64,000 bases of DNA from Dehalococcoidia bacterium (GCA_009377745.1 WHTK01000003.1:2568-66567), one strand, 5' to 3'. Numbered from the stretch's first letter, positions 11,292 through 16,356 are shown. Numbers and translations: made by a program. The notes: generated by a model from the sequence alone, not told the origin.

Positions 11292-11990
11292 ATGATCAAT
11301 CCAGCCAACCCCTTCGTGATCACGGCAGCGGCCAGCAGCGTGGCCCTCGACTCGAGCCGCAAGGCTGTCACCGCGTTTACGGTCAGCAACTCGCTGGGCC
11401 GAGCGGTGACGGCGCGCGCGAGGGTCCAGTACGACAAGCCGGACGCGGCGGCCTGGATAACACTGACGGGGGACGCCGAAGTGCCCTTCGCGGTGAGCCA
11501 GTCGCACCAGTACAACATCGAGATCGTTGTGCCGCCGGACGCCGCGCCGGGCGCCTACTCCTTCCGGCTCGACGTGGTCGGGGTGGAGAACCCGGACGAG
11601 ATGGCGTCGCAGGGGCCGTCCGTGAGCGTGGAGGTACCGGCTCCCGTCGCAGCCGCGAAAGGGGGACTGCCGTCGTGGTGGTGGATCCCGGTCGCCGCCA
11701 TCGTGGCGCTGCTGGTCGGTGGCGTCCTGGCCTTCGTCCTGCTGCGCGGCGGCGGGGATGAAGAGCCGTCGGCGCCGGCACGGCCGCAGATCCGGATCGG
11801 CTCGACGGGACCCGCTGTCGTGGAGCTGCAGAACCGGCTGCAGGAGCTGGGGTTCATGCTGGAGGCCGATGGCATGTTTGGTCCGGTGACGCAGCAGCGT
11901 GTGCGGACGTTTCAACAGGTGAACGGCCTACAGGTTGATGGCATCGTCGGGCCGGAAACATGGGCGGCGCTCGATGCCGCGGAGCCATAG
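11292..11990 (+). CDS. paralog A: conserved N-domain + TM helix + C-terminal peptidoglycan-binding (PG_binding_1-like) domain
   Basis: N-terminal PFVITAAASSV.LD...TAFTVSN..GR and YSFRLDVVGVENPDEM shared with three paralogs. TM helix WWWIPVAAIVALLVGGVLAFVLL. C-terminal GPAVVELQNRLQELGF...DGIVGPETWAAL. Confidence 0.55.
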   Translation: MINPANPFVITAAASSVALDSSRKAVTAFTVSNSLGRAVTARARVQYDKPDAAAWITLTGDAEVPFAVSQSHQYNIEIVVPPDAAPGAYSFRLDVVGVENPDEMASQGPSVSVEVPAPVAAAKGGLPSWWWIPVAAIVALLVGGVLAFVLLRGGGDEEPSAPARPQIRIGSTGPAVVELQNRLQELGFMLEADGMFGPVTQQRVRTFQQVNGLQVDGIVGPETWAALDAAEP

Positions 11991-12073
11991 GGCTAGAATG
12001 AGCGGGCGTAGCGCGATCTGCCGGCTGAAATCGCGGGCCGGCTAAGTCTGCATAGAAATAGGAGACCTCCCGC

Positions 12074-13021
12074 ATGGTCGGCTCAGACGAGGCCAGGTCC
12101 AGCCCCTTCGCCGTCACGGCTGCCGCCAACAGTGTCCGCCTGGACGACAAGCAGTCGGCCGTGACGACCTTCACGGTCTCCAACGCCAGCGGCCGCACTC
12201 TGACCGGCCGCGCCCAACTCCGCACCGACCAGCCGGCGGCGCTGCCCTGGCTAAGCGTGGTGGGCGAGCCGGAGCGCGTTTTCCCGCCCAACGAGGCGGT
12301 CCAGTACAGCGTCAACATTGCCGTGCCGCCGGGGTCACCGGCCGGGGCCTATAGCTTCAGCCTGGATATGATCGGCGTGGAGAACCCGGACGAGATGTTC
12401 TCGATGGGGCCGCCGGTGTCCATCGAGGTCAAGCAGGTCGAAGTAGTCAAGAAGGAACTGCCATCGTGGTGGTGGATGCCGGTGGCCGCGGGCGTGGTGC
12501 TGCTGATCGGCGGCGTGCTGGCGTTCGTCGTCCTGCGCGGCGATGACGCTCCGAGAGAGCCGGTCAGCGGGACGATTACTTTAGCCACATCCAGCGTTGT
12601 CGACCTGGACAGCAACAGCGCGCTCGGCGACCCGAGCGACAGCGACGACCTGCAGTACCTGGAGGCGGGAACTACGCATGTCGTCGTGGGGATTAACCGG
12701 GCGCGGATAGCGGCTTCCGGCGCGGGCATCACACCGGAGCAATGTCTGGAAGCGGCGAGCAACCAGGACCTCGATATTGGTTTCGTACGCATCCAGGGGA
12801 CCACGACTATTTGCGTGGCAACCGGCGAGAGCGGCGCTTCCGTGGTGCAGGCGGCGCTCGTGAATCAGGGTGGTGGCGGTGGCCGTCCTGCCACCTTCAC
12901 TCGCAGCGCCAACGAGGGCGTGAGGGCTCTGATCGCGGAGCTTGGCCTCGATCCCCGCGTCACCACGCCGCTGCCAACGACCACGGACGTCCGCGTCGCC
13001 TATAACACGCAGCCGCGATAG
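12074..13021 (+). CDS. paralog B: conserved N-domain + TM helix + C-terminal domain of unknown function (shared with paralog D)
   Basis: AGGAGA RBS. SSPFAVTAAANSVRLD..TTFTVSNASGRTLTGRA...YSFSLDMIGVENPDEMFSMGPPVSIEV, then TM helix, then VVDLDSNSALGD... Confidence 0.55.
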   Translation: MVGSDEARSSPFAVTAAANSVRLDDKQSAVTTFTVSNASGRTLTGRAQLRTDQPAALPWLSVVGEPERVFPPNEAVQYSVNIAVPPGSPAGAYSFSLDMIGVENPDEMFSMGPPVSIEVKQVEVVKKELPSWWWMPVAAGVVLLIGGVLAFVVLRGDDAPREPVSGTITLATSSVVDLDSNSALGDPSDSDDLQYLEAGTTHVVVGINRARIAASGAGITPEQCLEAASNQDLDIGFVRIQGTTTICVATGESGASVVQAALVNQGGGGGRPATFTRSANEGVRALIAELGLDPRVTTPLPTTTDVRVAYNTQPR

Positions 13022-13027
13022 CCAAGG

Positions 13028-14287: not shown

Positions 14288-14317
14288 CCGGCGGGCGAGG
14301 AGAACATGCGCGGGAGC

Positions 14318-15109
14318 CTAGAGCTTGCCAGTCTTGAGGAAGAGGACCGCGGCCCGCGCCCCCAGCGGCGGCAACGCGATGCAGGCGGGCACGACGACGA
14401 CGAAGAAGAGGAGCACCGCCGCCACATCGCCGATGATCGACAGGATCAGGATTGAGACGGCCATGAGGGCGGGGAAGATGACGGCGTGGCCGAGCGCTGT
14501 CGGCAGGGCCCAGTCATAGCCGCGATTGCGGAGGTTGTACCAGACGCCCAGCGCCGAGCCCAGCCACGGCCCCGGCAGACTTATCAGAATCACGACCACG
14601 AACCCCGTGAGCAGGCTATCGAGGTCGCCGCCGAGGATGGCGACCGTGAGGCCAATGACGACGCCGAGGATGATCCCGGCCGACGCGCCGGCCAGCATGC
14701 CGATCAGCGCGCCGGCAATCGCCGCGACGTAGCCGCGTTTGAGTTCGGGCTTCACGGTACCGCTGCCGGCCGGGTTGCTGAAGGTGACCGTGGGTCCCTG
14801 AGTAAAGACCTCGTCCGGGTTGGCGACGCCGACCATGTCGAGGCGGAAGCGGCGCTGGGCGCCGGGCGTGCCGGGGGGCAGTTGGATCTGGACCACGCAC
14901 TGGTGGGTTACCTGGACGGGGAAGTCGCGTTCCGGCTCACCGGCGATCGTCAGCCAGGCAGCCTCGACGCCTTCGAGGCCGGCGATGAGGGCACGGCCGC
15001 GAAGAGGCGCGGCGCTGATGTTGGTAATCGAGAACTGGACATCGCCGCGTCCGTTAGCGTCGAGGGCGATGGCGCCGGAAGGCGCTGTGATCGAAAACGG
15101 GCTCGCCAT
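14318..15109 (-). CDS. paralog C: conserved N-domain + polytopic (4-5 TM) C-terminal region
   Basis: GGAGG RBS before MASPFSITAPSG.IALD...FSITN.S...RGRA...FRLDMVGVANPDEVFTQGPTV, then multiple TM helices. Confidence 0.55.
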   Translation of the reverse strand: MASPFSITAPSGAIALDANGRGDVQFSITNISAAPLRGRALIAGLEGVEAAWLTIAGEPERDFPVQVTHQCVVQIQLPPGTPGAQRRFRLDMVGVANPDEVFTQGPTVTFSNPAGSGTVKPELKRGYVAAIAGALIGMLAGASAGIILGVVIGLTVAILGGDLDSLLTGFVVVILISLPGPWLGSALGVWYNLRNRGYDWALPTALGHAVIFPALMAVSILILSIIGDVAAVLLFFVVVVPACIALPPLGARAAVLFLKTGKL

Positions 15110-15369
15110 CAAGGCCTCCGAAAGCAATCCGGGAGCGACTCGACCGTCGCTCTTATAGCGCCCCGCAACGCTAACTGTATCCTAAACCAGGATCAGGCTT
15201 CGCGGCAGCCCGGACGGCAGCTGGAATCGCGCCAATAATAGCCGCGAAGGCGCTGCCTGCCAACCGGTGCAGACGCCCCGAACCTGTGCAAGAATTGGAC
15301 GCGCGACCAGCCCCGTGGCCACCACTTCCACGTCCGGTGGGCACTGCCTGGCGCAAGAACGGAGACCAC

Positions 15370-16356
15370 GTGACCCAGCCCGCCCCCGTCAGCAGCCCCT
15401 TCGCTATAACCGCCGCCAGCAATAGCGTCCGTCTCGACGCTGCCCGCAAAGCCCAGACCGCCTTCACCGTGACCAACGCCAGCGGGCGCACCTTGACCGG
15501 TCGAGCGATCCTGCAACCCGTCGCCGCCGATGCCGCGGGCTGGTTCAGCCTTGCCGGTCCCGCCGAGCGTCCTTTCGCGCCGAATGAGGTCTTCCAGTAC
15601 AGCGTCAACATCAGCGCGCCGCCCGACGCCATGGCCGGTCCGCAAGTCTTCACGCTCAACATGGTGGACGTGGCCAATCCGGACGAATTCTTCTCCTCAG
15701 GCCCGCCGGTCACGGTCGAAGTGCCGGAGGCGGCGCCTGGAGTGAAGCCGTTCAATTGGGCGATACCGATCGCCCTAATCGTCGCGGTTGTGACGATTGG
15801 CGCCGTGCTGGCGTACGTCCTGCTGCGCTCGCCCAACTCCGGGATCAGCGGCGAGGTCAGCGTCGTCAACAGCGACCTGGTAGATCTCGACACGGAGGCC
15901 GGCAAGTCCGACCTGACCTTCGGCGCCCTGCTGTCCGGGGCCTTCCTGACGCCCACCAGCGCCGAGTTTCAGGACATCGAGCGGCGGGCGGGACAGATCG
16001 ACTTCTGGTACCTGGTTGCCACCAACACCTTCGCCTTCAACGAGACCACGGGCCGCGTCCACGATGGCGGCGGCCTGAGCTACGGCGACGACAACACCCA
16101 GTTCGTCCTGATCGACGATACCAACCTGGTCTATGCGACGGGCAGCCGCGTCATCGACCTTCGCGGCGCTAAGCCCTCGCTGGAGGCGTGCCGCGATACT
16201 CAGAACTCACCCGAGCGCGAGGCCGTGACCCAGCTGACGGGCGCCAACGTCGCGTTCTGCTTGCAGACCTCGGAGGGGCGGCGATCCTTCGTCGAGCTGA
16301 CCCTGGGGTCAAATCCGCGGACCGACCCGGCGATTATCAGGTGGACGACGCGCTAG
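15370..16356 (+). CDS. paralog D: conserved N-domain + TM helix + C-terminal domain related to paralog B
   Basis: GTG after a GGAGA RBS. SSPFAITAASNSVRLD...TAFTVTNASGRTLTGRA...NPDEFFSSGPPVTVEV. TM helix IPIALIVAVVTIGAVLAYVLL. C-terminal LVDLDTEAGKSD.. aligns with B. Confidence 0.5.
   Translation: MTQPAPVSSPFAITAASNSVRLDAARKAQTAFTVTNASGRTLTGRAILQPVAADAAGWFSLAGPAERPFAPNEVFQYSVNISAPPDAMAGPQVFTLNMVDVANPDEFFSSGPPVTVEVPEAAPGVKPFNWAIPIALIVAVVTIGAVLAYVLLRSPNSGISGEVSVVNSDLVDLDTEAGKSDLTFGALLSGAFLTPTSAEFQDIERRAGQIDFWYLVATNTFAFNETTGRVHDGGGLSYGDDNTQFVLIDDTNLVYATGSRVIDLRGAKPSLEACRDTQNSPEREAVTQLTGANVAFCLQTSEGRRSFVELTLGSNPRTDPAIIRWTTR

Follow-up and report, generated by a model that had tools for sequence, protein, structure and literature searches.

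Four paralogs with a common N-terminal domain

We analysed a 64,000-nucleotide stretch of DNA from a Dehalococcoidia bacterium (WHTK01000003.1:2568-66567), referred to here as the window, with positions counted from its first nucleotide. Within it, four paralogous genes, which we designate A to D, follow an operon for a contractile injection system (CIS) that has no tail-fibre gene. The original prediction, made from the sequence alone, held that their products share an N-terminal domain (N-domain), that a transmembrane (TM) helix and a divergent C-terminal module follow it in each, and that the proteins might be membrane anchors or adaptors of the CIS. The four open reading frames (ORFs) are present as predicted and encode the following proteins, whose lengths are given in amino acid residues (aa) and whose N-domains are immunoglobulin (Ig)-like:

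11292-11990, plus strand: paralog A, 232 aa; Ig-like N-domain (aa 1-~120), PSWWW motif, TM helix (aa ~132-150) and PG_binding_1 domain (aa 172-227)
12074-13021, plus strand: paralog B, 315 aa; Ig-like N-domain, TM helix (aa ~136-154) and a ~160-aa C-terminal domain without a family match
14318-15109, minus strand: paralog C, 263 aa; Ig-like N-domain fused to a polytopic C-terminal region with ~4-5 TM segments
15370-16356, plus strand: paralog D, 328 aa; Ig-like N-domain, TM helix (aa ~134-152) and an unassigned ~175-aa C-terminal domain

The N-domains of A to D could be aligned over ~120 aa, with 37-51% identity to A and 30 invariant columns, and the motifs proposed as the consensus, including SPFA-ITAA, TFTVxN, GE-ER-F, VPP and NPDE, are among these columns. 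The start codons chosen originally also agree with the N-terminus found throughout the family, M-x-x-(P/x)-F-x-I-T. A hydropathy scan located a TM helix after the N-domain of each protein (a hydrophobic segment that starts at aa 125-136 and lies within aa 125-154) and no hydrophobic segment before residue 125, in agreement with the claimed absence of signal peptides; it also revealed ~4-5 further hydrophobic segments in C, as expected for a polytopic region. Alignment and Pfam searches bore out the divergence of the C-terminal modules, and the peptidoglycan-binding domain assigned to A matched PG_binding_1 at aa 172-227 (E 3e-21). The second domain thought to be common to B and D did not hold up at full length: it was reduced to a juxtamembrane motif of ~28 aa (BLASTP E 0.005; Smith-Waterman z = 4.0, with the observed score reached in 6 of 1000 shuffles).

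We modelled the N-domain with AlphaFold2, using aa 1-127 of B and an alignment of 48 sequences. The model is an all-beta sandwich with a mean predicted local distance difference test score (pLDDT) of 88.7 and a predicted template modelling score (pTM) of 0.75, and its top structural matches include Ig domains of the PapD/ASH/MSP type. On the basis of this model, the N-domain is confidently predicted to be an Ig-like sandwich of that type. The Ig-like fold in the earlier guess of a CARDB/Ig-like sandwich is supported by both the model and the structure search. The Pfam gathering threshold of CARDB/NPCBM_assoc (NEW3) was not reached by the window proteins; two distant family members do pass NPCBM_assoc, scoring 26.3 and 26.4 bits where the cutoff is 24.4. 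The N-domains of A to D had no Pfam match at E <= 0.1 and no NCBIfam match, and a sequence profile search of the PDB found no relative at E <= 10. No CIS or phage-tail component was among the best structural matches, and a viral library returned nothing specific.

A CIS-linked family with exchangeable C-terminal modules

An exhaustive hidden Markov model (HMM) search of 1.84 billion representatives, clustered at 50% identity, retrieved 2,670 proteins with the N-domain at E <= 1e-3 and 977 at E <= 1e-30. Word-indexed searches under-sampled the family, giving 61 and 53 matches with no Streptomyces or Roseiflexus names among them. Among the best 150 of the ~2,670 proteins, which are 136-988 aa long, the N-domain always lies at residues 1-145. 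Exactly one TM segment was found in 137 of 143 representatives, with a median start at aa 126. Beyond the helix, Pfam identified a PASTA ectodomain in 53 of 133 members; the other domains found in this set are NPCBM_assoc, DUF11, PD40, Laminin_G_3, CBM96, PKD, Big, VOMI, META and thioredoxin, and PG_binding_1 is present in A and its relatives. The family thus combines a constant unit, consisting of an Ig domain that begins at residue 1, a juxtamembrane FPWW-type motif and a TM helix near residue 126, with a variable unit, an exchangeable C-terminal module of extracytoplasmic type. Because no Pfam or NCBIfam model covers the N-domain, such proteins are annotated by their ectodomain only, for example as 'PASTA domain-containing protein', the RefSeq name of the copies on Deinococcus and Paracoccus plasmids.

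The original prediction had placed the N-domain in the cytoplasm, in a type II (N-in/C-out) topology. This orientation is supported by the extracytoplasmic character of the ectodomains (PASTA, PG_binding_1, LamG, PKD and Big), by the lack of a signal peptide and by the positive charge on the N side of the helix: in the 143 representatives, the net charge of the 15 residues flanking the TM segment is +108 on the N side and +19 on the C side. From these features we infer that the N-domain is cytoplasmic; on the same three features we rejected an N-out topology.

To place the family in its genomic context, we compared 51 metagenomic, 16 reference-genome and 2 plasmid loci, probed with the CIS proteins of the window. 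Matches to the N-domain across these loci had tblastn E-values of 1e-20 to 1e-70, well beyond chance. Widespread homologs without CIS neighbours, which the original prediction had named as the pattern that would contradict it, were not what we found: CIS genes are adjacent in 19 of the 23 loci that have at least ~6 kb of upstream DNA. The gpI-like gene stands directly upstream of the first N-domain gene in 38 of the 69 loci, most of the others being short contigs, and the gap between the two is usually 6-124 base pairs, widening to ~1 kb where a homolog of a 261-aa protein (see below) intervenes. The N-domain genes thus occupy the slot of the tail-fibre gene, after gpI/Cis12. At two loci (L010 and L055; Candidatus Chloroploca), the N-domain gene is divergent from the cap end of the operon.

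The CIS-linked loci cover five phyla: Chloroflexota, Dormibacterota, Myxococcota, Deinococcota and Alphaproteobacteria. The hosts in Chloroflexota are Anaerolineae, Caldilineaceae, Thermoflexales, Promineifilaceae and Chloroploca; those in Myxococcota are Pyxidicoccus fallax, Archangium violaceum, Hyalangium and a metagenome-assembled genome of Myxococcaceae; the others include Dormibacterota, Deinococcus sp. AJ005 (plasmid p96k) and Paracoccus sp. MC1862 (plasmid). We conclude that the link between the family and CIS is strong, and that A to D are most likely inner-membrane proteins, bitopic except for the polytopic C, of a large unnamed family of accessory proteins of fibre-less CIS.

Relatives of individual window paralogs recur among these loci. 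A has a counterpart with an 81% identical N-domain in L014, B has an ortholog (88% identical) in L003, and the C subtype, an Ig domain with a polytopic tail, is found again in P0057, L023 and L063. Each locus carries one to five tandem copies of the N-domain, and at several of them the N-domains are 88-97% identical to one another while the C-termini are unrelated. Thus, in L004 (10001-12000) the C-terminus is a Cys-rich repeat domain in one copy and a different domain, of 125 aa, in the other, and L025 (7788-12000) has five copies, two of them limited to the Ig domain and TM helix and one with two PASTA domains and a large domain. Some members reach ~1,000 aa, with many folded domains (L056). 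As judged from the sequences, near-identical Ig-TM units with unrelated C-termini imply that the C-termini were exchanged, by recombination or as cassettes, at a point just behind the TM helix, and the identity of the N-domains within a locus indicates that the unit of Ig domain, FPWW motif and TM helix tracks the genome and its CIS. The window paralogs, which are 41-59% identical, are older than such copies. Ancient orthologous paralog lineages were ruled out as a general rule, the closest relative lying in another locus for only 18 of 46 copies.

Two side observations concern the surroundings and ectodomains of particular members. Copies in L062 and L066 (Myxococcota) and L061 (Promineifilaceae), with the match at 10001-10350, are orphans without neighbouring CIS genes and carry LamG-like or double PG_binding_1 ectodomains. 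On the Paracoccus plasmid (L075, 13701-19689), the CIS and PASTA genes are followed on the 3' side by genes for two serine proteases and a 'peptidoglycan-binding domain-containing protein', possibly accessory or effector genes of that cluster.

The upstream operon and neighbouring genes

The operon upstream of the paralogs had been described as encoding a fibre-less CIS. Searches with Pfam and NCBIfam confirmed this, finding a set of CIS genes at 395-10083 on the plus strand with no tail-fibre gene:

395-1111, plus strand: Pvc16_N cap-like protein (Pfam)
1059-2348, plus strand: sheath protein (Pfam)
2341-2820, plus strand: gp19-type tube protein (Pfam)
2798-3901, plus strand: unassigned 367-aa protein, an ORF within the CIS operon
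3901-4455, plus strand: CIS_tube protein (Pfam)
4634-6154, plus strand: VgrG-like spike, in the baseplate half of the operon
6155-6496, plus strand: 113-aa ORF, in the baseplate half
6493-6924, plus strand: gp25-like 143-aa ORF; the gene order is the same as in L002, where Pfam records gp25
6684-9527, plus strand: ORF for a Baseplate_J/Cis11-like protein (Baseplate_J, TIGR02243)
9463-10083, plus strand: gpI/Cis12-like protein (TIGR02242, Tail_P2_I)

The sheath shares 46-50% identity with sheaths encoded on Streptomyces plasmids and 60% with a Deinococcus sheath, and by sequence the window CIS resembles lineage IId. Searches of the window by tblastn with queries from a Streptomyces plasmid CIS cluster gave no match for CisA-like, Sco4256-type or Cis15-type ATPase genes. 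At aa ~580-730, the Cis11-like product has a C-terminal extension with weak matches to Sortilin-Vps10 and to an F510_1955 glycosylhydrolase-like (BNR/propeller-type) family; it may be a peripheral extension of the baseplate and a candidate docking surface.

Four further genes lie between or beside the paralogs:

10499-11284, plus strand: 261-aa polytopic membrane protein with a HEAGH (HExxH-like) motif, between the gpI-like gene and A
13028-13510, plus strand: 160-aa protein with an N-terminal TM helix or signal anchor, directly 3' of B
13514-14287, minus strand: 257-aa polytopic membrane protein, between B and C; a recurrent partner of this CIS type
16440-17888, plus strand: 482-aa cell-wall hydrolase with Amidase_2, SpoIID and two LysM domains (Pfam), directly 3' of D

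The 261-aa protein has no Pfam match, but homologs occupy the same position in L014, L021, L023 and L044, and the HEAGH motif in its C-terminal part hints at a membrane metalloprotease. A homolog of the 160-aa protein, 76% identical, follows the B ortholog in L003. Homologs of the 257-aa protein, with 40-60% identity, lie within a few kb of N-domain genes in ~26 related loci from several phyla, the Deinococcus plasmid among them; none was found in the examined Streptomyces plasmid region (L069), and neither Pfam nor NCBIfam gave a match. The 257-aa protein surpasses the Ig-TM proteins in conservation and may belong to the core membrane components of CIS of this type. A link by fusion between it and the polytopic tail of C was ruled out (BLASTP E 3.4). 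The Amidase_2/SpoIID/LysM protein has no obvious signal peptide and an endolysin-like look, and tblastn found no homolog in the related loci; it could be a lysis enzyme or an effector of the CIS, and its membership of the system is uncertain. Beyond the cluster, a right-handed beta-helix/NosD-like protein (17930-19378, minus strand) and a DUF4012 protein (21746-23680, minus strand) are encoded.

Possible role and relation to known systems

The original prediction did not recognize the domain family and missed a precedent, as the Streptomyces proteins Sco4256-4258 share its architecture and are probable remote homologs. Sco4256 has a first domain (aa ~2-215) that HHpred found similar to pilus chaperones, then a TM helix and a variable third domain; homologues, seldom encoded away from CIS regions, were reported from Roseiflexus, Deinococcus and cyanobacteria (PMC10020575). 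The HHpred templates published for it, RbmA, CsuC, CupB2, 5GHU, 2QSV, 5DFK, DraB, CEP192 and transglutaminase (PMC10020575), largely coincide with the structural matches of our N-domain model.

As the comparator we used not Sco4256 itself but a homolog from a Streptomyces plasmid CIS cluster (L069:10505-11863, 'hydrolytic protein'), the relatives of which bear the name 'COG1470 family protein', one of them being a RICIN-domain protein. At the HMMER level its similarity to the window family is not significant: searched against all ORFs of the fetched loci, the Streptomyces HMM matched only window-family proteins, at E 0.06-0.5, covering the last strand, the FPxW motif and the TM helix, and found no other relatives there. 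A single Streptomyces sequence aligned in the TM region only, and a diversified actinobacterial profile was used for hhalign. With this profile, the N-domain aligned from its first residue to the first Streptomyces Ig domain (probability 73.7%, E 2.9e-5, 121 columns) and also to the second Ig domain with FPxW and the TM helix (probability 36.9%, E 3.6e-4); the two alignments scored 40.1 and 33.3, and reversed and column-shuffled controls no more than 23.8 and 15.9. Homology between the two groups is therefore probable but unproven at the sequence level, the window form being a putative single-Ig variant.

The two groups have much in common: several paralogs inside or beside a CIS cluster (of lineage IId in Streptomyces), a PapD-like Ig domain from residue 1, a juxtamembrane (F/L)PxW(L/I) motif, one TM helix and a variable C-terminus, with RICIN there and PG_binding_1, PASTA or LamG here; both are also rare away from CIS regions. 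They differ in that Sco4256-4258 have two tandem Ig domains and ~215 aa before the helix, as against one Ig domain and ~120 aa in the window family, whose ectodomains, unlike theirs, are dominated by PASTA. Also, their genes are usually divergent and upstream of the sheath operon, an arrangement seen here only in L010 and L055, whereas most window-family genes follow gpI. Sco4256-4258 were published as effectors, a role that may not transfer to the window family.

We propose, with a probability of about 0.5, that the family members are membrane adaptors or anchors that replace the tail fibres of their CIS. The cytoplasmic Ig domain would dock to the CIS, most likely at Cis11/Cis12 in the peripheral wedge of the baseplate, given that its gene takes the place of a tail-fibre gene; outside the membrane, the PG_binding_1, PASTA or lectin-like domains of the C-terminal module would bind or sense the cell wall. 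Docking on one side and wall binding on the other would allow the proteins to recruit and orient a cytoplasmic CIS at the membrane and possibly to couple the state of the envelope to firing, and several paralogs could offer one common docking site with different outward specificities. Synteny with CIS genes, the fixed architecture with one TM helix, the types of ectodomain and the constancy of the N-domain unit are all consistent with such a role, as are the resemblance of the fold to cytoplasmic tether domains such as VAP-MSP, the variants consisting of the Ig domain and TM helix only, which leave no possible toxin domain, and the lack of a detectable tail-fibre, CisA-like or Sco4256-type gene in the window. 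Several points weigh against it. The probable Streptomyces homologs were interpreted from experiments as effectors (PMC10066040), and polymorphic cargo, too, is built on the principle of a conserved N-domain joined to a variable C-terminus. The CIS of Roseiflexus, which belong to a related clade, look unanchored in tomograms (PMC12998442). Finally, four loci (L022, L061, L062 and L066) hold orphan copies with no CIS within 10 kb; one of them, L061, is from a Promineifilaceae genome that also contains the CIS-linked L056.

The main rival explanation is that the proteins are cargo: their N-domain would serve to load them into, or direct them to, the tube or spike, and the TM helix and variable C-terminus, as the active part, would damage the membrane or envelope after firing. 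The Streptomyces proteins, with their probable remote homology and identical architecture, are the main argument for this: Casu et al. called them effectors, having found them toxic in E. coli and a triple mutant to contain more empty particles and to phenocopy CIS mutants (PMC10066040), and mass spectrometry of purified particles detected Sco4256 (Vladimirov et al. 2023, PMC10020575). Shuffled C-termini on a constant N-domain recall polymorphic toxins as well, and the genes close off the structural operon on its 3' side, where extracellular CIS often encode their payloads. However, Pfam found no toxin-like C-terminal domain in the window four or in the 133 family members and, among the families listed above, no recognisable enzyme; what it found instead were binding modules. 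Variants limited to the Ig domain and TM helix would carry no payload, multi-domain members of ~1,000 aa (L056) would fit poorly into a tube lumen, and a protein whose TM helix is not cleaved off and whose ectodomain binds the wall would be expected to enter the membrane of the cell that makes it and not to be packaged. Moreover, toxicity in E. coli has also been reported for CisA, a membrane protein that is not an effector (PMC12237407). We consider a cargo role unlikely on balance, and it could coexist with an adaptor role.

Two further explanations draw on the ectodomains and on the generic nature of the fold. PASTA serves as a muropeptide- or wall-sensing module in PknB-type kinases and is the dominant ectodomain here (53 of 133), so the proteins might chiefly be sensors of envelope state, and not static anchors, that detect muropeptides or wall damage and whose Ig domains, for example through clustering, capture free-floating CIS and trigger firing and regulated cell death. 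Related CIS do float free until stress (PMC10066040, PMC12998442), and CisA is needed for stress-induced firing (PMC12237407). Yet many ectodomains are non-sensing or absent (Ig domain and TM helix only, Cys-rich repeats, polytopic tails) and no signalling domain is present; this idea refines the adaptor model and offers no separate mechanism, and it is improbable as an account of its own. That the proteins are mere bystanders, generic adhesin-like or COG1470-like envelope proteins that happen to be encoded beside CIS genes, would accord with the generic Ig fold, the four orphan loci and the two members that pass NPCBM_assoc, but is hard to reconcile with gpI-like synteny kept across five phyla while sequence identity drops to 30-50%, with the CIS-linked copy elsewhere in the genome of orphan L061, or with the failure of the Streptomyces HMM to find other relatives in the fetched loci; we regard it as very improbable.

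At its broadest, the adaptor proposal would make the Ig-TM family the missing docking and trigger module of fibre-less cytoplasmic CIS in five phyla, with ectodomains that report wall damage and so couple envelope stress to firing and regulated cell death, and, by homology, with Sco4256-4258 as membrane receptors of the CIS and not cargo. We advance this version tentatively and with some doubt. The question behind this is by what means a fibre-less CIS in the cytoplasm reaches the membrane and what makes it fire; CisA answers it for Streptomyces only, and the Ig-TM family is a concrete candidate in at least five phyla. Cultured or plasmid-borne examples are at hand in Deinococcus sp. AJ005, Paracoccus sp. 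MC1862, Pyxidicoccus fallax and Archangium violaceum. For Sco4256-4258, the choice between cargo and membrane receptor means that the 'effector' label deserves re-testing, and swappable ectodomains on a constant docking unit may serve the engineering of CIS targeting.

Among known CIS proteins, CisA (Sco4242) has a measured N-in/C-out topology, is required for firing and has a cytoplasmic N-terminus predicted to contact Cis11 (PMC12237407); its close homologues are absent from Roseiflexus (PMC12998442). Like the window family, for which N-in is inferred here, it is bitopic, and its gene comes right behind the baseplate genes of a cytoplasmic CIS that has no fibres. It differs in its largely disordered N-terminus with a Cys-rich zinc ribbon, where the window family has a folded sandwich, and in its conserved C-terminal domain, where the window family has variable C-termini. 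No homology to CisA had been claimed, and a tblastn search with a CisA-like protein from a Streptomyces plasmid indeed found nothing in the window. Anabaena Cis13 (All3316) is encoded right after cis12 and attaches to the baseplate by its N-terminal domain; a TM helix is predicted at aa 122-154, and its deletion releases the CIS from the membrane (PMC8894136). It shares with the window family the gene slot after Cis12 and the placement of the TM helix, and this analogy strengthens an anchor or adaptor function as a plausible reading. It is, however, a trimeric fibre-like protein with a C-terminal helical bundle and a thylakoid target, and it has no Ig sandwich with ectodomains. Neither sequence nor fold matched Cis13 in our searches, that of the PDB being a profile search at E <= 10 in which the presence of the Cis13 chain is unconfirmed. 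CisA and Cis13 are thus positional and functional analogs of the window family and not homologs.

VAP-A/Scs2 provide a mechanistic analogy, as they recruit partners to a membrane with a cytoplasmic MSP/PapD-type Ig domain and a single TM helix; these proteins are eukaryotic and tail-anchored, have no ectodomain and are only 10-15% identical, and we claim no evolutionary link. In a haloarchaeal CIS resembling a type VI secretion system, the lineage-specific membrane protein Hbor_38620, which is conserved together with one CIS clade, has a ~150-aa cytoplasmic domain and was proposed as a baseplate anchor (PMC11566945). As described, it resembles paralog C in outline, an Ig domain with a polytopic region, but has six TM helices and another gene position. 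Bitopic CIS accessory proteins of the same layout in Streptomyces and membrane-anchoring substitutes for fibres were therefore already known, and our searches of the literature library found no work combining CIS with PASTA domains. What the present analysis adds to these systems is a large, previously unmodelled single-Ig subfamily with a fixed position in the fibre slot in five phyla, its PASTA-rich, shuffled ectodomains and its conserved 257-aa partner.

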